NCBI GenBank assembly: GCA_964439155.1
Contig: CAYTNJ010000001.1
Location: 1 to 38,543 of the forward strand
DNA from: an uncultured Candidatus Peribacteria bacterium
Lineage (GTDB): Bacteria; Patescibacteriota; Gracilibacteria; Peribacterales; Peribacteraceae
Length of the DNA: 38,543 nucleotides
Reading direction: 5' to 3'
This document shows, in pieces, positions 7,506 through 38,179 of this stretch. Position numbers and translations under genes: made by a program. Below the pieces are notes generated by a model. That model was given only the letters and a program-made list of their open reading frames with translations, did no database searches and was not told the origin of the DNA. The stretch's first letter is position 1. Each line of letters opens with the position of its first letter.

Positions 7506-8339
7506 ATGACACCTGTGGCGACCGTCATTGCTCCCGGCACTCTTGCGAATAGCGCGCGAGATTTGCGTCTCAAGGTATTGGAGATGGCTCACCGCGCGCA
7601 TAGCGGGCACATCGGGTCCGCGTTTTCCGTGATCGACATTTTGGCAACACTCTACGGCGGATTTCTGCGTATTGATCCCGCGCATCCGCAAGCACCAGAC
7701 CGTGACCGCTGCATTCTGAGCAAAGGCCACGCGGCCTCCGCGCTGTACGCGGTGCTGGCGGCGAAAGGATTTTTCCCGGAGGAGGAATTGCGGCACTACC
7801 TGCGCGACGGCGGACGGCTGCCCGCGCATCCCTCTCCCTCCTTGCCGGGAGTGGAAGTGGCCACCGGATCGCTCGGACACGGGCTTTCCATAGGAGTTGG
7901 CATGGCGCTGGCAGGCAAAATCGCGGGCAAGACATACCGCACGGTGGTGATCGTGAGCGATGGCGAGTGCGATGAAGGATCCACGTGGGAAGCCGCTTTG
8001 AGCGCCGCACATCACGGACTCGGAAATCTTCTCTGCATCATCGACGCCAATGCCATCCAGGCGCTCGGACGTACCGAAGACGTACTGGCCCTGGAGCCGC
8101 TGGCGGAAAAATGGGCCGCCTTCGGCTGGTCGACGCAGGAGGTGGATGGCCATGACGTCGAGGCGCTCTCGGCCGCACTCGCCCGATGCGACGTGACATC
8201 GGCACGCCCGCATGTGATCGTCGCACGCACCGTCAAAGGCAAGGGGGTGTCGTTCATGCAACACTCAATCGATTGGCACTATTTGCCTCCCGATGACGAG
8301 CGGTACGCGCTCGCCCGAAGCGAGCTTTCCGCATCCTAA
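7506..8339 (+). CDS. Transketolase, N-terminal (ThDP-binding) subunit of a split enzyme
   Basis: LEMAHRAHSGHIGSAFS, GSLGHGLSIGVGMALAG, VIVSDGECDEGSTWEAALSAAHHGLGNLLCIIDAN (ThDP motif). 277 aa. TACAAT at 7492-7497 lies 8 nt before the ATG. Confidence 0.9.
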   Translation: MTPVATVIAPGTLANSARDLRLKVLEMAHRAHSGHIGSAFSVIDILATLYGGFLRIDPAHPQAPDRDRCILSKGHAASALYAVLAAKGFFPEEELRHYLRDGGRLPAHPSPSLPGVEVATGSLGHGLSIGVGMALAGKIAGKTYRTVVIVSDGECDEGSTWEAALSAAHHGLGNLLCIIDANAIQALGRTEDVLALEPLAEKWAAFGWSTQEVDGHDVEALSAALARCDVTSARPHVIVARTVKGKGVSFMQHSIDWHYLPPDDERYALARSELSAS

Positions 8340-14548: not shown

Positions 14549-15457
14549 ATGTCGATCGAGATTCACGTTCCCCGGCCGCTTCTCACCCTCGGCGTCATCG
14601 CCGTGGCGACGTGGTTTGCGCTGGGCGGAAGGCTCGCTTGGCAGCCTGAAGCAAACGGAAGTGCTCAGGAGCACGTGCACGCGCAACTGCAAGAGAGCGA
14701 GGAAGAAGAACTGCAAGACGCCGGCGGGTCCGACGGCGAAGACGTGCGCAAAGCGCGCGAGGCGGAGGAGACCGTGAGGGATTTACGCGTGAAGCAAGAA
14801 GTGCTCAGTCGTCGCGAGGAAATTTTGCGTTACGAACTCGGGCTGCTCGAATTGGAAGATTCCGACGATCCCCTCGACGCCGCGACAATCCAAGAGCGCC
14901 GCCGAGAACTTGTGGCGTTGCTTCAGGATAAACAAAAAGCCGAAGAGCAGATCTTGGCCTCGCTGCAGCAAATGTGGGACGCCCGCGGATTCGCCATGGA
15001 GATTTCCAGGGAACGACGCGGAGGAACGCGCCCGCAATTGCTCGCCTGGCCGGTAGAGCCGCTGCTCGGCATTTCCGCGCACTTCGAAGACGCGGGCTAT
15101 CGCAAGCGCTTCGGGTTCGATCACCATGCCGTCGATATCCCCACGTCGCAGGGCACGATCATCTTCGCGCCGGCGGACGGCATCGTCGCCCAGGTGTCGG
15201 ACAACGGCTTGGGATTCAGTTCCCTCACGGTCGATCACGGGGGCGGCATGGCCACCCTCTACGGCCACGTATCGGCATTCCTCGTGACCGAAGGCCAGCA
15301 AGTACGCAAAGGCGACCCCATCGCCAAATCGGGCGGTCAGCCCGGCGGCAAGGGCTCGGGACGCATCACCACGGGGCCGCATCTGCACTTCGAAGTGTTG
15401 ATCGACGGTGAGAAGGCGGATCCGCTGCAGTACTTGGAGGAAAGCCCGAACTTGTAA
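14549..15457 (+). CDS. M23-family metallopeptidase with N-terminal TM anchor and coiled coil (EnvC-like)
   Basis: HHAVDIPTSQG (HxxxD), GPHLHFEV (HxH), glutamate-rich coiled-coil segment. TATACT at 14533-14538 lies 10 nt before the ATG. Confidence 0.88.
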   Translation: MSIEIHVPRPLLTLGVIAVATWFALGGRLAWQPEANGSAQEHVHAQLQESEEEELQDAGGSDGEDVRKAREAEETVRDLRVKQEVLSRREEILRYELGLLELEDSDDPLDAATIQERRRELVALLQDKQKAEEQILASLQQMWDARGFAMEISRERRGGTRPQLLAWPVEPLLGISAHFEDAGYRKRFGFDHHAVDIPTSQGTIIFAPADGIVAQVSDNGLGFSSLTVDHGGGMATLYGHVSAFLVTEGQQVRKGDPIAKSGGQPGGKGSGRITTGPHLHFEVLIDGEKADPLQYLEESPNL

Positions 15458-15460
15458 AGA

Positions 15461-15528
15461 ACGTAAAACGTAAAACACACAAATACGACTCGTATTTTAC
15501 GTTTTACGTTTGTGTGTTTTGCGTTTTT
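15461..15528 (+). terminator. Intrinsic terminator between convergent genes
   Basis: Perfect 15-bp stem ACGTAAAACGTAAAA / TTTTACGTTTTACGT (15461-15475 / 15495-15509), followed by TTGTGTGTTTTGCGTTTTT. Overlaps the last codons of dgt. Alternative pairing AAAACACACAAA / TTTGTGTGTTTT is possible. Confidence 0.7.
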
Positions 15529-16556
15529 CCAAGCATCTCCTTGGCATACGCATCGGTCATGCCAGCAACATAATCTTTCACCGCTTCCGGCAGGCTGCTC
15601 TTTGTGCGGTTTTGCAAAGTGAGAATTTTATCCGCGGGATTGGCGAAGTAGTGCTGGCATAAAGCGATCAAAATTTGCTGCCCCTCCTGCATGGGGGCGA
15701 TCACTTTGGGATGCACGTAGAAGTTGCTCCACAAAAACGTGCGCCATTCATCGAGCAAGTCGTGCACGTTTGGAGAAAACCCGACGAGCGGCTCGGCGCA
15801 CGATTGCACGTCTGCGAGAGTGCGCACGCCGTGCGCATCCAGACGCTTGCGCGTTTCGGCCAGCACGTCGGCATGCAAGATGCGAATCAGCCCTCCCCTT
15901 AGCGACGTACCGCGTGGCTGCGTGAGCGCATAAGCCTGGCGAATCAAGGGAATATCTTTGATCTGCTCGAAGGGGAAAAGTTCCGCTTTCAATCCGTCCT
16001 CGCAATCGTGCGCGGTGTAGGAAATTTCATCGGCGATGTTCACCAGCTGCGCCTCCAGCGTGTGCTGCTTGCCCGTGAGTGAATGCTTTTGCAATCCCTC
16101 CACGATTTCCTTTTGCAGATTGAGCCCCGGCTGCCCGGGAATGTGTTCTTCCAACAACGTGATGATGCGCAGCGATTGTTCGTTGTGTTCAAAGCTGAGT
16201 CCGTGCGTGCGCATCCAGGCGTCCAGAGCTTCTTCTCCCGCATGGCCGAAAGGCGGATGACCCAAGTCATGCGCGAGCGCTATGCACTCGGCCAAGTCTT
16301 CGTTCAGCCCCAGGGTGCGCGCCAAATCGCGGCTCACGAGCGCCACTTCCAAACTGTGTGTCAGGCGCGTGCGATAGTGGTCCCCTTCTCCGGCAACGAA
16401 CACCTGAGTCTTCCCCTGCAGCCTGCGAAACGCCTGCGTATGCACGATGCGGTCGCGGTCACGCTGAAAGGGCAAGCGGTGAGGGTCGGCTTCCTCGCGA
16501 ATCTCACGATCAAGATAGCCCGAAGGAGGAACGGCGTAGGAAGCGAGAGGATTCAT
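15504..16556 (-). CDS. dgt: dGTPase-like HD-domain dNTP triphosphohydrolase
   Basis: FQRDRDRIVHTQAFRRLQGKTQVF, HYRTRLTHSLEV, ALAHDLGHPPFGHAGEE. Confidence 0.9.
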   Translation of the reverse strand: MNPLASYAVPPSGYLDREIREEADPHRLPFQRDRDRIVHTQAFRRLQGKTQVFVAGEGDHYRTRLTHSLEVALVSRDLARTLGLNEDLAECIALAHDLGHPPFGHAGEEALDAWMRTHGLSFEHNEQSLRIITLLEEHIPGQPGLNLQKEIVEGLQKHSLTGKQHTLEAQLVNIADEISYTAHDCEDGLKAELFPFEQIKDIPLIRQAYALTQPRGTSLRGGLIRILHADVLAETRKRLDAHGVRTLADVQSCAEPLVGFSPNVHDLLDEWRTFLWSNFYVHPKVIAPMQEGQQILIALCQHYFANPADKILTLQNRTKSSLPEAVKDYVAGMTDAYAKEMLGKTQNTQT

Positions 16557-19507: not shown

Positions 19508-20461
19508 ATGCTTAAGTCGCCTCGCCGGCTGCCGCAACGGTACAACCGCCGCGTGACGTCGTATACCGACCGTCTGGTGAAGTCCCGCAACATGCGCCAT
19601 CGCAAGTATGCGCGCGAGCGGTTTTTCCGCACGTTCCAGCGGTTTCAGCGAAAGTTGCCGGCGCTGCGCAAGACCGTGCTGCGCTTCGGCGGATTGCTCG
19701 GGCTTGGGCTCGTGGCGATGCTGGTCGGCCTCGCGTTTTGGTCCCCCATCCTGCAGCTGCGCGACATCCGCGTGGGCCGCACCGATCCGCGCATCGAGGA
19801 AGAATTGGTGCAATCGGCGCTTCGCCCGTTGCTCGGCAAGCACATGCTCTTCTTGAATACGCAAGACATAGCGCCGCTCCTTACGGCCGCCCTCCCCCGC
19901 GTCGACCGCAGCGCCGTGCCCGACTTGCTCAGCGTCACCGTGCGCAAGGATTATCCGTCGTCGCTCTCCGTGCGCATCGCCCTCGATCCCCTCATTGCGC
20001 GCCTGGCCATGCGCGAGCCCGCCGGGCAAGCCGATACCGCGCCCAAAACGCAAACCGGGGAGGTGATCACGAGTGATTTTCTCACGAGCAAAGGCATGTA
20101 CGCGCCTTACCTGCCGTCGCAGGTGGGAAGCGGCACAGCGCTGCCTCTCTTCACCATCGTCGACTGGGGCGCGCGCCCGGTGCCGTGGACAACACTCATC
20201 GAGCCCGATTTTTTAAAGACGATGCAGGATGCTGAAAAAGAACTGAAAGACCAATTCAGCCAGCCCGTTTCCGAACGCCAAATGTTCATCCGCGCCCGCG
20301 AGTTCCATCTCAAAACGCCCGCGCACGAACTGTGGTTCGACGTGCGCAGTCCCCTGGCCGAACAACTCGAACGCTACCGTCTTTTCCTCCGCACCGTCGG
20401 CGCCCCGATGGCCAAACAGTACGTGGATCTGCGCTTGGCGGACAGAGTGGTCTATCGCTAA
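19508..20461 (+). CDS. ftsQ: FtsQ/DivIB-like cell-division protein (basic N-terminus, TM, POTRA)
   Basis: TM helix LGLGLVAMLVGLAFW, then LQLRDIRVGRTDPRIEEELVQSALRPLLGKHMLFLNTQDI (POTRA-like). TATCAT at 19494-19499 lies 8 nt before the ATG. Alternative start at M29. Confidence 0.6.
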   Translation: MLKSPRRLPQRYNRRVTSYTDRLVKSRNMRHRKYARERFFRTFQRFQRKLPALRKTVLRFGGLLGLGLVAMLVGLAFWSPILQLRDIRVGRTDPRIEEELVQSALRPLLGKHMLFLNTQDIAPLLTAALPRVDRSAVPDLLSVTVRKDYPSSLSVRIALDPLIARLAMREPAGQADTAPKTQTGEVITSDFLTSKGMYAPYLPSQVGSGTALPLFTIVDWGARPVPWTTLIEPDFLKTMQDAEKELKDQFSQPVSERQMFIRAREFHLKTPAHELWFDVRSPLAEQLERYRLFLRTVGAPMAKQYVDLRLADRVVYR

Positions 20462-34157: not shown

Positions 34158-35228
34158 CTAGGCAACCGTCACCGCCTCACACAAATACACATCCTGAATC
34201 GCGTGCAGCAACTTCACCCCTTCTTCCCGCGATTTCTGGAAGGCTTTGCGTCCGGCGATGAGCCCGCTGCCGCCCGCGCGTTTGTTGATGACGGCCGCGC
34301 GCACCGCGTCCTCCAAGTCGTTCTTGCCCGAGGCGCCGCCGGAGCTGATCAGGCCGATGCGTCCCATGTAGCAGTTGGCCACTTGATAGCGCGCCAGGTC
34401 GATCGGATGCATGCTCGAGAGTTTCGTGTAAATGCGCTCGTCGGTTTTGCCGTATTGGGAGCCTTTGATATTGAGTGCGGTGAAGCCGCCATTAGTCTCG
34501 GGCAGTTTCTGCTTGATGATGTCCGCCTGGATCGTCACGCCAAGGTGATTCGCCTGTCCCGTCAGGTCCGCGGCGGCATGATAATCCTTGCCCCCCTTCT
34601 TGAAGCCGGGATTGCGCAGGTAGCACCACAGCACGGTGAACAGTCCCAGCCTGTGGGCCTCCGCGAAGGCCGCACTAACTTCCTGTATCTGCCGCGTCGA
34701 TTCGGGTGAGCCGAAATAAATCGTGGCGCCAACTCCGAGCGCTCCCATGTCTTTCGCTTGGCGCACGGAGCCGAAGAAAATTTGATCGAACTTGTTCGGG
34801 TACGTCAGTAATTCGTTGTGATTCAACTTCACGATGAACGGGATTTTGTGCGCATATTTCCGCGACACCATGCCAAGCACTCCCACCGTCGAAGCAACCG
34901 CGTTGCAGCCGCCTTCCATCGCCAACTTCACGATGTTCTCGGGATCAAAGTATGCGATATTCGGCGCGAACGATGCGCCTGCCGAGTGCTCGATGCCCTG
35001 GTCCACGGGACGGATGGAAAGATATCCCGTGCCGCCCAGCCTCCCGTGCCCGTACAGCGTCTTCAAATGCCTCTGCACGGCGTAAGACCTGTCGGAGTCG
35101 GCGAACAGCGTGGCGGCCGCCTTGGGGCCCGGCACGTGCAGCTGCTGCTTGGGGATCGTCTTGCACGCATGCGAAAGCAGGCTCGCCCCTTTCGGTCCGA
35201 GCAGGCGTTTGATATCGGCGTAGGTCAT
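34158..35228 (-). CDS. fbaB: Class I fructose-bisphosphate aldolase, DhnA/FbaB type
   Basis: The track start at 35255 is TTG. ATG 35228 gives [11 protein letters not shown]. End-to-end resemblance to E. coli FbaB as I recall it: [86 protein letters not shown]. Confidence 0.92.
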
Positions 35229-35353
35229 GAAGCGAGGGGAAGGGGCGGGTCTCAACCTAGCAAAACGCCCAGCCTCTGACCAGTTTTAGCGCTTGTCACG
35301 ATGCGCTCGTCCCGTAGTGAGCTCGTCGAACTATCGAACTGCATGACGAATGA

Positions 35354-35422
35354 GCCCGATCCCCCTTCTCCGATAGTGCGTGTAAACGTGGGCACGGCAG
35401 GAGAGAAGCGTGGGGATCGGGC
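35354..35422. other. Long imperfect hairpin (candidate structured RNA element)
   Basis: Perfect 11-bp outer stem GCCCGATCCCC (35354-35364) / GGGGATCGGGC (35412-35422). Inner CTTCTCC / GGAGAGAAG pairing with a bulge. Apical GCGT-GTAA-ACGT, which is a GNRA loop only on the + strand. Confidence 0.5.
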
Positions 35423-35492
35423 GGCTAAATAGGAAAAAAGGTGTGACCTCGAACAACGTCGGAGTTGCTCGAAGCGGTCTGGTGCAAAAGTG

Positions 35493-35540
35493 CCGCCGGC
35501 GGATTTACGCCCGCCGGCGGAGATGGATCACCTCCCTTCT
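35493..35540. other. GC hairpin plus 16S rRNA 3'-tail look-alike (on + strand); equivalently a 15-nt super-SD (on - strand)
   Basis: CCGCCGGCGG-ATTTACGC-CCGCCGGCGG (35493-35520), then AGAT, then GGATCACCTCCCTTCT (35525-35540). The widespread 16S 3' end is GGATCACCTCCTTTCT, so 15/16 match. Confidence 0.6.
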
Positions 35541-35697
35541 ATCCTAAGGAGTCATAACTATGGAAAAACATTTGCATGTATGGACCTCCTTCGAAAACAA
35601 AGGATTGTGATAGTCCTGGCAACATCTTCGATGCTGCAGCAGGCCGCTTGGAGCAATAAATCAAAGAGCGGGAAATAGATCTGCGATGTCTAAAGTG

Positions 35698-35729
35698 TTC
35701 CAGCTGGCGCGCGTTCGCGCCAGCTGGAA
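35698..35729 (-). terminator. Strong hairpin 17 nt downstream of the 67-aa ORF
   Basis: TTCCAGCTGGCGCG-CGTT-CGCGCCAGCTGGAA (14 bp). No clear U-run on either strand. Confidence 0.5.
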
Positions 35730-35745
35730 TGAGAGTCCTGAGATG

Positions 35746-35949
35746 CTACTCGTCTTCGTCGCAGTCGTAATTGACGCTGATGAGTGGCTTTGCGGTGGGT
35801 TGGAGCTCTTGATCCTCTGCCCTGGGATCAAAATATCCTCCTTGAATCACTTGTTTCAGCTTACTCTTTCCGGCACGCCGATCAGACCGGGTTTCCTGTC
35901 TCTTGAGCCGGCTGACGCGCTCGCGCTTGTTAGAGTTGAGCTTGGACAT
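35746..35949 (-). CDS. 67-aa small protein, basic N-half and acidic C-tail, unknown function
   Basis: GGAGGG-7nt-ATG at 35949. MSKLNSNKRERVSRLKRQETRSDRRAGKSKLKQVIQGGYFDPRAEDQELQPTAKPLISVNYDCDEDE. GC3 about 42/67 by hand count. Hairpin downstream. Confidence 0.5.
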   Translation of the reverse strand: MSKLNSNKRERVSRLKRQETRSDRRAGKSKLKQVIQGGYFDPRAEDQELQPTAKPLISVNYDCDEDE

Positions 35950-36108
35950 GAAATTTCCCTCCGTGCTAACGGACAATCCTGACGTCTTTTCTCCCTGCAC
36001 ATACAGGAACAACGCAGGTCCATTTCTCCTGAGCGATGCTGTGAAAAAACAACGGAAAACGATCTGCTTTCGAAAGGAAGAATGGTAGCTTCCAAATTCT
36101 TAAGGGAC

Positions 36109-36169
36109 GGACGCCGAGACTCTTCGTGAATCTCGGCGTCCTCTATGGTCAACCCCTCGTCATGAGGGG
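36109..36169 (-). terminator. Two hairpins downstream of the 42-aa ORF
   Basis: GGACGCCGAGA-11nt-TCTCGGCGTCC (36109-36141) and CCCCTC-GTCAT-GAGGGG (36153-36169). Confidence 0.4.
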
Positions 36170-36185
36170 TGCTAAAAGGAAGGCA

Positions 36186-36314
36186 TTAGACATGCGCTCG
36201 GCGGTGAATCTTGCGCGGGTTCCAGGTGGTTATCTTCATCCGAAGCGGCAGTGCGACGTTGCTCAAAATGTGCGTCGGGAAGGAAGAGACGTGGTACGGG
36301 AAGTGCCGATACAT
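36186..36314 (-). CDS. 42-aa His/Pro/Arg-rich micro-protein, unknown function
   Basis: AAGGAG-6nt-ATG at 36314. MYRHFPYHVSSFPTHILSNVALPLRMKITTWNPRKIHRRAHV. GC3 is 33/42 by hand count, against 37/71 for the overlapping + strand ORF. Confidence 0.4.
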   Translation of the reverse strand: MYRHFPYHVSSFPTHILSNVALPLRMKITTWNPRKIHRRAHV

Positions 36315-36460
36315 GTTTTGCTCCTTCTTACGATGGGGCTGACCGACTACCGTCGCTATCGTAACCAACGTGGTTACGGACGAAGGCAGGTCGTTTTCTG
36401 CGTGCCATGAACGTAAGCGTGGTTCATGGAGGCTGTGCTGTGAAGGTCCGAAAGAAGCAA

Positions 36461-36490
36461 AAAGGCCCCGATCTTGCGAGAGGGGCCTTT
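36461..36490 (-). terminator. Rho-independent terminator reading on the minus strand
   Basis: AAAGGCCCC-12nt-GGGGCCTTT. On the minus strand it is followed by TTTTTGCTTCTTT. Confidence 0.6.
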
Positions 36491-36691
36491 AGAGTTCGAG
36501 TTTCTGCGTTACATCACTCTTGCCCCTTTGTAAGGTGCTTCGTAAGGCGGGCCGAAATGACAAACGACAGGTGCATTGCGGCCAGGGTATCATCGGTTTT
36601 CTCACTGTCAACAGCGAAATTTCGATGCGATGGAGCTAAAAGAAAAGACGACTGTGGGCGACCGAACGGCTCTTCGCTATGCTCTTTGACG

Positions 36692-38179
36692 ATGCCGCTG
36701 AAGCTCTATAACTCCTTGGCCAAGCAGGAAGAAGAGTTCCGCCCCTTAAACAGGAGCGTCGTGAGCATGTATACCTGCGGCCCCACCGTGTACGGCCGCC
36801 CGCATATCGCCAACTATTCGGCGTTCCTCATGGCCGATCTTTTGCGAAGGTGGTTGCAGTTTGGGCACGGGCTAAAGGTGATCCACGCCAAGAACATCAC
36901 CGACGTGGGGCACTTGGTGCGCGACGCCGATACGGGGGAGGACAAAATCGAGAAGCAGGCGCGCGAAGAATTCGGCGAAGTCACCCATGATTCCGTCATC
37001 GGCATCGCGCGCAAATACGAGGCGATGTACCTGGAAGATGAGAAGGTATTAAACATGCTCGAGCCCGACTTCCGCCCGCGGGCCACCGAGTACATCGACC
37101 AGATGAAAGAGATGATCGAAAGTCTTCTCCAAAACGGTCACGCATACGTCACCGACGACGGCATCTATTTCGACGTCACTTCTCCCACGCTCACGCCCTA
37201 CGGAACACTCTCCGGAAACACGCTCGAAAACCTCGCCGCCGGCTCGCGCGTGGAGGTGAACGAGGCAAAGAAACACCCCGCCGATTTCGCCCTCTGGAAA
37301 TTCTGCGTCGGCCCCAATGAACACCATGCTCTAAGGTGGCCTTCCCCTCAGGTCGGCGGGAGCGGGTTTCCTAACCCGCGGCTCTTGGATCCCCTACCCG
37401 ACGGCTTCCCCGGTTGGCACATCGAATGCTCCGCGATGAGCAGGTCGCTACTCGGGGACTCCATCGACATTCACACCGGCGGCGAGGACAACATTTTCCC
37501 GCATCACGAATGCGAAATCGCGCAGAGCGAATCGGTCACCGGAAAGCCGTTCGTGCGAACGTGGCTGCACAAGAGGCGCATCGATCTCGCCGGTGAAAAG
37601 ATGTCAAAGAGTCTTGGCAACGTGTTAACTATTATTGACATTTCGGAGAAGGGCTATTCCCCCCTCGATTTGCGCTACTACTTCAGCTCCGTGCACTATC
37701 GCACCAACTTAAAATTCAGTTGGGAGGGTTTGGAGGCCGCACGCAAGGCGAGGCGCACGATCATGGAGTGGATGGAGGAAATTTCCGCCATGCAGGCCGC
37801 TGCCGAAGGGAAGCAAACGGAGGTCAACGCCGCGCACGAATGGAAGCAGATGTTCGCTTCGGCGATGGACGCCGATCTCAACGTTTCCCAAGCTCTCGCA
37901 GCCGTCTTCGGATGCGCCTCTTGGTCGCGCGTCGCGCCGTTGAATGACGAAGCACTTTCCGTCGTGCGCGAGTTCATCACGCTGATACGGCACACGTTCG
38001 GTTGCTTCACATTCGAGACGAAAAATATTCCGGAAAACGTACAACGATTGGTTGATGAAAGAGCTGCCGCCCGCGCCGGAAAAAATTTCGCGGAGTCCGA
38101 CAGATTGCGTGACGCGATCGACGCCCTCGGCTACGAAGTGCGCGACGGAAAAGAAGGACAAATCGTGAAGAAAAAATGA
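36692..38179 (+). CDS. cysS: Cysteine--tRNA ligase
   Basis: ATG 36692 gives MPLKLYNSLAKQEEEFRP, CGPTVYGRPHIANY (HIGH-region variant), WHIECSAM, FPHHECEIAQ, KMSKSLGN. The 95 codons from 36407 in the track ORF are hairpin-rich non-coding leader. Confidence 0.92.
   Translation: MPLKLYNSLAKQEEEFRPLNRSVVSMYTCGPTVYGRPHIANYSAFLMADLLRRWLQFGHGLKVIHAKNITDVGHLVRDADTGEDKIEKQAREEFGEVTHDSVIGIARKYEAMYLEDEKVLNMLEPDFRPRATEYIDQMKEMIESLLQNGHAYVTDDGIYFDVTSPTLTPYGTLSGNTLENLAAGSRVEVNEAKKHPADFALWKFCVGPNEHHALRWPSPQVGGSGFPNPRLLDPLPDGFPGWHIECSAMSRSLLGDSIDIHTGGEDNIFPHHECEIAQSESVTGKPFVRTWLHKRRIDLAGEKMSKSLGNVLTIIDISEKGYSPLDLRYYFSSVHYRTNLKFSWEGLEAARKARRTIMEWMEEISAMQAAAEGKQTEVNAAHEWKQMFASAMDADLNVSQALAAVFGCASWSRVAPLNDEALSVVREFITLIRHTFGCFTFETKNIPENVQRLVDERAAARAGKNFAESDRLRDAIDALGYEVRDGKEGQIVKKK

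Follow-up and report, generated by a model that had tools for sequence, protein, structure and literature searches.

The DNA analysed here, referred to as the window, is the whole 38,543-nucleotide (nt) stretch of contig CAYTNJ010000001.1 (assembly GCA_964439155.1) from an uncultured Candidatus Peribacteria bacterium, and the element in question is an isolated sequence resembling the 3' end of 16S ribosomal RNA (rRNA) that lies between cysS and fbaB. The fbaB gene, which codes for a class I aldolase of the DeoC/LacD family, occupies positions 34158-35228 of the minus strand and cysS starts near 36692 on the plus strand and, therefore, the element sits in a divergent spacer of 1.46 kb. On the plus strand, two 10-bp arms (CCGCCGGCGG/CCGCCGGCGG, at 35493-35502 and 35511-35520) enclose a loop of 8 nt and are followed by AGAT and then by GGATCACCTCCCTTCT at 35525-35540; the hairpin and the tail-like motif exist as an earlier note on this DNA had stated. 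Within the window, the exact 11-mer GGATCACCTCC has a single occurrence, and just one 16-mer agrees with the canonical tail GGATCACCTCCTTTCT with two mismatches or fewer, the mean over 100 dinucleotide-preserving shuffles being 0.01, which bears out the rarity claimed for the motif. Further observations of the note hold equally: the start of fbaB, placed there at ~270 nt, was measured at 265 nt from the hairpin; an AAGGAG, an ATG at 35560 and a 16-codon open reading frame (ORF) are present on the plus strand; and the minus strand offers no start codon within range of the motif and continues into the hairpin and CACTTTTG. It had also seen no other 16S-like sequence nearby. Indeed, Rfam models found no rRNA in the window at gathering score, where only tRNA-Trp and tRNA-Asp were matched, and a permissive scan of 35150-36500 (E<=10) gave no small-subunit (SSU) rRNA.

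On the minus strand, the motif reads AGAAGGGAGGUGAUCC (its reverse complement, 35525-35540) and is a maximal Shine-Dalgarno (SD) sequence, complementary to the canonical 16S 3' tail over 16 nt, one G.U pair included. Duplex energies with the tail GGAUCACCUCCUUUCU were computed at 77,050 positions of the window (mean -5.1, standard deviation 2.7 kcal/mol). With a predicted -30.0 kcal/mol, this sequence is the strongest anti-SD complement of the window, ahead by 9 kcal/mol of the second best (-21.3 kcal/mol), which lies at 20052 on the plus strand within an FtsQ-like coding region. No ATG, GTG or TTG is found 4-13 nt 3' of it on the minus strand, and it is called the orphan SD in what follows.

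The orphan SD is one part of a compact arrangement on the minus strand. At its 5' side, the pyrimidine-rich tract AAUCCUUUGUUUUC (35593-35606), for which SD1 and the 5' half of the orphan SD are alternative predicted partners, stands just 5' of a first SD, SD1 (GAAGGAGGU, 35584-35592). SD1 lies 6 nt before the ATG (35577) of a mini-ORF of 12 codons (MQMFFHSYDSLG, 35539-35577), and the final two bases of the TAG stop (35541-35539) are the initial two of the orphan SD. A local SD/anti-SD hairpin can form at 35519-35535 between GGAGGUG (35535-35529) and CAUCUCC (35525-35519) around the loop AUC, and is followed by a GC hairpin of 10-11 bp with the loop GCGUAAAU (HP1, 35493-35520). CAC and UUUU (35489-35486) come next, which gives HP1 a terminator-like appearance. 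Given that the other terminators of the window are GC hairpins with merely 3-4 U, HP1 with its UUUU is a plausible terminator. A second terminator-like structure (35429-35479) consists of the hairpin HP2 (35479-35445) and CACCUUUUUUCCUAU (35443-35429), and its U-rich tail is an anti-SD-like tract that is predicted to be able to pair with the orphan SD.

The closest relatives of the window FbaB belong to metagenome-assembled genomes of Candidatus Peribacteria/Peregrinibacteria in which the order cysS-fbaB-yidC-rnpA is kept, with an identity of 82% at most among the genomes compared (82% for L081/L082, 81% for L083, 79% for L084 and 78% for L085, which is identical to L202). When the cysS-fbaB spacers of these genomes are aligned, GGAGGTGATCC is the sole invariant island of sequences that are otherwise unalignable, and it lies on the fbaB strand, 5' of fbaB, in L081/L082, L083, L084 and L085/L202. 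The search of relatives that had been proposed thus found the motif in the orthologous spacers of four further genomes. Together with a copy on the metagenomic contig L182, the family comprises six independent sequences, one of them truncated at the motif. The invariant stretch measures 11-13 nt in five or six lineages and reaches through GGUGAUCC. The orphan SD is under clear purifying selection.

The bases that do vary identify the strand. The purines 5' of GGAGG alternate between A and G (GAAG, GAAA and GAGA, that is, GA[AG][AG]GGAGG), and both keep pairing with the U's of the ...CCUCCUUUC tail only when the motif is read as an SD, on the minus strand. Likewise, the seven bases after the loop of the local hairpin, CAYYUYY, vary between C and U and fold back onto GGAGGUG. 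Across the six sequences, 40 of 42 positions of this local hairpin are paired in the minus-strand RNA and 30 of 42 in the plus-strand RNA. The best match of the permissive Rfam scan also falls on the minus strand. It is to RF01867, the Caulobacter small RNA (sRNA) CC2171, of which the consensus starts with GAAAGGAGGUGAUCCA and ends in a GC terminator. Membership in this alphaproteobacterial family, for which the literature gives no function, was rejected (24.2 bits versus a gathering score of 75), as only model positions 1-24 and the terminator were matched and 105 of the 159 model positions were deleted. Since the best Rfam match, the conservation of the spacers and the strand-specific pairing all agree, the minus strand is taken as the functional one. 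Judged by sequence, the element is a conserved minus-strand RNA module and not a remnant of rRNA. The plus-strand proposal of the earlier note, an anti-SD mimic that would pair with the adjacent SD or titrate factors in the manner of Era binding, is not supported, given that its ORF occurs in the window only, that pairing favours the other strand and that no further 16S similarity exists. The conservation does support the minus-strand proposal, in which a GC hairpin comes after a stand-by, pause or decoy site. This proposal had captured the orphan SD and the hairpin correctly and had overlooked the SD-led mini-ORF and the local anti-SD hairpin.

The architecture around the orphan SD is kept in the relatives. 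An SD core stands 6-9 nt before the ATG of a mini-ORF in all five sequences for which upstream DNA is available, and the mini-ORF measures 22, 10, 13 and 10 codons in L081, L083, L085 and L182, respectively. Its length therefore varies twofold (10-22 codons) with its end fixed at the orphan SD. The stop codon abuts the motif as TGA-AAGGAGG in L081 and TGA-GAGGAGG in L083, and in L085 and L182 it is the TGA inside GGUGAUCC. The fixed adjacency of stop and orphan SD is an argument for coupling in cis. The encoded peptides (MQMFFHSYDSLG, MIPQAPPGRVHVHAPIRFVGVR, MEVHSSARSH, MKFRKEPYFPERR and MRGSLNPERR) are unrelated, and no common motif was found among the five except the one forced by the SD, nor any regulatory codons or arrest peptide.

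A usable start codon after the orphan SD is present in none of the six sequences. The triplet at P-site distance reads ATC, ATC, ATC, ACC, ACT and ATC, and the frames that it opens (89, 4 and 44 codons) bear no mutual similarity. For this reason, initiation at a near-cognate ATC, which in the window is ideally spaced and opens the frame of 89 codons, was rejected: relatives have ACC or ACT, and the frames of 4 and 44 codons are dissimilar. Initiation bridged across HP1 was rejected as well, given that merely unrelated TTG or GTG frames of 20-31 codons lie beyond it. What does follow the orphan SD, in six of six sequences, is a hairpin at a distance of 4-12 nt, with differing stems and z-scores from -1.2 to -3.9; in L182, this hairpin is a canonical terminator with U6.

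In free RNA, the orphan SD is predicted to be masked. In each of the five minimum-free-energy ensembles, the probability that its GGAGG core is unpaired is close to 0, and two or three bases of the trailing UGAUCC are predicted to be unpaired in some members. The predicted partner differs: a 5' CU-rich tract in L081 (13 bp) and L083 (15 bp), an internal GGAUCACU in L182 and a 3' CACUUUUU in L085. In some members, the pairing with the 5' tract would enclose the mini-ORF. No conserved antiterminator pairing was found in the five folds.

The genomic background makes a maximal SD conspicuous. An SD core (GGAG, GAGG or AGGA at -18 to -4) precedes none of the 20 long genes of the window, examples being those at 7506, 13052, 14549, 19483, 19508, 20547, 29936 and 35228. 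Instead, 14 of these 20 genes carry a TAnnnT hexamer near the ATG, mostly at -12 to -20 and often with an upstream TG (TGnTAnnnT). Boxes so close to the ATG imply mRNAs that are leaderless or have very short, pyrimidine-rich leaders. According to published surveys, bS21 is often missing from Peregrinibacteria, and most bacteria of the candidate phyla radiation (CPR) retain the anti-SD (PMC9297842). The intergenic pairs of SD and ATG in the window all lie in the cysS-fbaB spacer on the minus strand, and are three in number: the mini-ORF, an ORF of 67 amino acids (aa) at 35949-35746 and an ORF of 42 aa at 36314-36186. A search of 5.8 billion proteins gave no homologue of the 67-aa ORF, of which the product has a basic N-terminus and an acidic C-terminus, and it has no match in Pfam or PHROG; the 42-aa ORF has no match among the PHROGs. 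By eye, similar small proteins are encoded in the same spacer of L081 (64 aa) and L232 (72 aa, MSKRERVS...).

The attenuator-like link to fbaB that had been suggested for the minus strand is doubtful. The element lies 200-300 nt from fbaB in four genomes and ~700 nt in L083, where an extra ORF intervenes. Nearly all Peribacteria loci, those free of the element included (L001-L011, L037, L081-L086 and window 35262-35229), have a conserved TGCTAGCCT/TGCTATACT-like box 25-35 nt upstream of the ATG of fbaB, and this box is followed by a C/U-rich, anti-SD-like leader. In the window, this box is TGCTAGGTT at 35262-35254. Between the element and the box there are 1-3 further hairpins, several of them with U-tracts, and in the window HP1 with U4 and HP2 with U6 both precede the -10-like box. 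Given that fbaB has its own conserved box, that hairpins intervene and that the L182 copy lies away from fbaB, the module most likely forms a separate transcription unit and is not the leader of fbaB.

The L182 copy was obtained by scanning metagenomes with the pattern GARRGGAGGTGATCCAYYT. Among the matches listed, which also include L085 again, most are noise, such as a recurrent long frame ...GGDPFIFGRG... and reverse-complemented 16S ends. In L182, the module follows a TGCTATTCT box (an extended -10), is flanked by two canonical intrinsic terminators and lies beside unrelated small genes. A neighbouring protein is 47% identical to one from an uncultured Caudoviricetes genome, so L182 is probably derived from a phage. 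Its HP1 shares an apical sequence of 11 nt (CCCTCGTAAGG) with L084, which argues that the two descend from a common source. The motif is absent from the 8.4 kb examined of phage MW202647.1, a relative of L182, and a scan of viral sequences gave 23 matches with no clear family member. It is likewise absent from the 80 genome loci around fbaB homologues, from the more distant Peribacteria loci and from two further loci of which the FbaB is 77% identical; where Peribacteria loci give relaxed matches, these fall in coding sequence, as in L007, where the match at 7925 is inside a membrane protein. The motif thus appears, among the matches listed, to be confined to one subclade and a phage-like contig. 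The literature searched gave no account of an element of this kind from CPR bacteria.

The reading that we favour, with a probability of roughly 40%, is that of a ribosome-capture module that acts in cis and is coupled to translation of the mini-ORF. Ribosomes would load at SD1 and translate the mini-ORF and, at its end, would open the helices in which the orphan SD is masked. A 30S subunit in termination or recycling, or a scanning 70S ribosome, would then be captured by a duplex of 13-16 bp between the orphan SD and the anti-SD and, in the absence of a start codon, would be unable to initiate and would stay parked. If GGAGGUGAUCC pairs with the 16S tail, the P site would come to lie ~5 nt downstream, on the initial bases of HP1, and the 5' arm of HP1 would lie in or at the mRNA channel. 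A parked ribosome with the whole 5' arm in the channel and a formed HP1 would be mutually exclusive. In L085 and L182, the terminating ribosome itself would cover the start of the hairpin. The fate of the short transcript, by formation of the hairpin or terminator, by protection from nucleases or by both, would in this way be tied to translation, and the possible outcomes include read-through of HP1, RNA protection of the STAB-SD kind and plain retention of the ribosome. In effect, the module would report the availability of ribosomes in a genome of which the ordinary genes have no SD.

Several points weigh against this reading. The comparison rests on six independent sequences, one of which ends at the motif, and the pairing partner is the near-universal bacterial 16S tail, which was assumed. 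The stop codon lies 2-3 nt before GGAGG in the window, L081 and L083, and a terminating ribosome would there fall short of HP1; capture would need a forward movement after termination, which is an assumption. There is no U-tract behind HP1 in L081 and L084 and, therefore, its designation as a terminator is not general. A convincing promoter 5' of SD1 is predicted solely in L182. The absence of the motif from Peribacteria with an FbaB identity of 77% or less means that it is not essential to the lineage. Finally, the downstream genes seem to have their own promoters, and the payoff of a parked ribosome is not evident.

An unlikely alternative, and the one that survives best, is a trans-acting sRNA of ~120-175 nt that ends at HP1 or HP2 and binds the free tails of 30S subunits as a sponge or decoy. 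It would sequester 30S subunits or block SD-dependent initiation, and the SD-less mRNAs of the host would still be translated, so that in an SD-poor genome a block of the anti-SD would be selective. The layout, in which the seed adjoins a terminator, is that of an sRNA, the resemblance in the permissive Rfam scan is limited to the 5' GAAAGGAGGUGAUCCA of CC2171 and a terminator, and the L182 copy looks free-standing, with two terminators and an extended -10 box in a phage-like context. A sponge, however, has no need of a translated mini-ORF with a stop always fused to the SD, its SD is predicted to be masked in free RNA, and each locus carries a single copy.

Rather less likely is a stabiliser or stand-by site of the STAB-SD kind at the 5' end of a long fbaB transcript, where a bound 30S subunit would block 5'-to-3' decay of the RNase J type or feed the SD-less start of fbaB. 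The element does lie on the fbaB strand, 200-700 nt upstream in five genomes, fbaB itself lacks an SD, and a perfect SD distant from any start is the hallmark of STAB-SD (Agaisse and Lereclus 1996, as cited in PMC12970973). These points are set against the TGnTAnnnT box that fbaB carries at 25-35 nt from its ATG even in Peribacteria loci free of the element, the 1-3 terminator-like hairpins on the way to fbaB, the extra ORF of L083 and the L182 copy, which is not beside fbaB. About equally doubtful is a 6S-like role, in which the RNA would act on ribosomes as 6S RNA acts on RNA polymerase: in CPR bacteria that use no SD for nearly all their genes and often lack bS21, it would occupy the idle anti-SD of 30S subunits and have its release gated by translation of its own mini-ORF. 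Were it true, the RNA would serve for storage of subunits or for a selective block of SD-dependent messages, such as those of invading phages, and the copy on a phage-like contig would be a counter-move.

It is quite improbable that the motif is a functionless relic, either the strong SD of a former small gene that has lost its ATG or a purine tract that arose by chance next to a terminator of the upstream small ORF. SD-led small ORFs are concentrated in the cysS-fbaB spacer, and in the element-free genome L231 the same spacer holds a real small ORF headed by GGAAGGAGGTGGGCC-ATG (~1541-1320 of the minus strand). In L231, GGAAGGAGGTGGGCC, on the cysS strand, almost duplicates the orphan SD, except that a genuine start codon follows. 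A relic would nonetheless not be expected to remain invariant over 11-13 nt across five or six lineages in spacers that are otherwise unalignable, to lack a start codon in all six sequences, to change at its flanks in ways neutral for pairing or to keep the architecture of the mini-ORF. Recognition by an RNA-binding protein specific for GGA, of the CsrA type, with SD1 and the orphan SD as its two sites, is very improbable: two AAGGAGG motifs do lie 45-85 nt apart, and csrA adjoins cysS in L085, but the invariance through GGUGAUCC goes well past a GGA site and agrees exactly with the 16S tail, and the window has no csrA gene. A plus-strand mimic of the 16S 3' end, or the decayed end of an rRNA operon, is hardly credible in spite of the hairpin that precedes GGAUCACCUCC(C)UUCU and the 15/16 match to the canonical tail, given that there is no SSU similarity past the tail, that the stem (CCGCCGGCGG) and loop (AUUUACGC) are unlike helix 45 with its GGGGAACCUGCGG loop, that the plus-strand ORF is not conserved, that the substitutions would break plus-strand pairs and that selection has kept an SD-led mini-ORF on the opposite strand. 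Some metagenomic 16S genes, among the matches listed, do end in ...GCAGATGGATCACCTCC and share AGATGGATCACCTCC with the window; those of L118, L144, L163, L181 and L188, which end in ...GGAAGGTGCAGATGGATCACCTCCTTTC, have an unusual 3' strand of helix 45.

To our knowledge, orphan SDs that bind ribosomes without initiation are known from a few Gram-positive cases, STAB-SD being an example. By analogy, STAB-SD is the closest known analogue of the element, which under the capture reading would work most like STAB-SD and like stand-by and entrapment sites. STAB-SD stabilises the 5' end of the cry3A mRNA in B. thuringiensis (Agaisse and Lereclus 1996, as cited in PMC12970973). Both are sequences complementary to 16S rRNA in untranslated RNA far from starts, and STAB-SD is considered to act by binding 30S subunits and not by initiating translation. 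The full complement without use in initiation is found here (16 nt, -30 kcal/mol, with no start in range and no conserved downstream ORF in six sequences). As to a position in the 5' untranslated region of a stabilised mRNA, the element lies upstream of fbaB on the fbaB strand in five genomes, with a box of fbaB's own and terminator-like hairpins in between, and the L182 copy lies away from fbaB. The complement measures 15-16 nt versus 9 in STAB-SD. Unlike STAB-SD, it is fused to the stop of a mini-ORF, would be masked by the local anti-SD hairpin and is directly followed by a hairpin or terminator; it is probably outside the mRNA of the downstream gene, and its host is an SD-poor CPR bacterium.

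Leader-peptide attenuators (trp/pyrBI and erm) share with the element a short SD-led ORF right before a hairpin or terminator, so that formation of the hairpin could hinge on where a ribosome stands once the ORF ends. A short ORF with its own ribosome-binding site (SD1) was found in five of five sequences and the hairpin in six of six. The terminator is more variable, with U6 in L182, U4 after a gap of 3 nt in the window and no U-tract in L081 and L084. The differences are that no regulatory codons, arrest peptide or antiterminator were identified here, that the SD behind the ORF serves no cistron and that the downstream genes seem to have their own promoters. With the stand-by site of tisB and the entrapment of rpsO by S15, the element would have in common the binding of 30S subunits without productive accommodation of a start and a stable structure at the entrance of the channel; those systems, however, serve or repress a real start nearby, and here there is none. 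The masking of the SD core by a short U/C-rich strand with G.U pairs, such as AGGAGGUG/CACUUUUU in L085, resembles a fourU thermometer, and a weak hairpin over the SD does exist (GGAGGUG/CAYYUYY, 40 of 42 positions paired). An RNA thermometer of the fourU or ROSE kind was nonetheless rejected, as none of the six sequences has a start codon behind the masked SD.

What is new here is a maximal orphan SD, in an uncultured CPR lineage, that is fused to a mini-ORF predicted to be translated. If the capture is real, it would explain, in concrete and testable terms, the retention of the anti-SD tail by SD-poor bacteria, and the element would be a compact natural device for sensing or parking ribosomes. 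Given that the RNA is short and the 16S tail near-universal, heterologous components suffice for its study in vitro.

Other arrangements place an extended SD behind a stop codon. In other metagenomic lineages (L097, L100, L101, L128, L141, L174, L177 and L206), the TGA of an SD-led small hydrophobic peptide (e.g., MLLQFLFWWIGSIFAYGNRRPERKF) with the conserved core LFWWxGxxFAYG runs into GAAGGGAGGTGATCCACTTCTCCC, behind which there is a hairpin but no nearby start codon; this is the layout of the element studied here, but with a conserved peptide. Phage contigs show two arrangements (L116/L131, equal to the viral L221/L207; L091, L111, L117, L187 and L189; and the viral L213, L214, L218, L222, L225 and L226). 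In the first, a small membrane protein has its TGA fused to AAGGAGGTGATCCATCT, followed by a canonical terminator. In the second, a holin-like gene has its TGA joined directly to GAGAGGAGGTGATCCATCTATCTCCCGG, and the gene that follows is served by an SD of its own ~80 nt further on. Both are orphan extended SDs directly after stop codons.

Two further features of the window were noted. A candidate small RNA of ~120 nt is found on the minus strand of the same spacer at 36611-36455, with a near-consensus promoter (TTGACA at 36611-36606, 16 nt, and TG-A-TACCCT at 36592-36584), a canonical terminator (AAAGGCCCC...GGGGCCTTTTT, 36490-36459) and no Rfam family beyond the terminator. L081 has a homologue at 1231-1324 (72% identity over 96 nt, E 6e-5), with the promoter TTGACG...TGATACCTT. 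At 15457-15530, between convergent genes, ACGTAAAAC-like repeats form a perfect hairpin of ~20 bp with a predicted energy of -27 kcal/mol, which is unusual for this window in its length and AT-richness.

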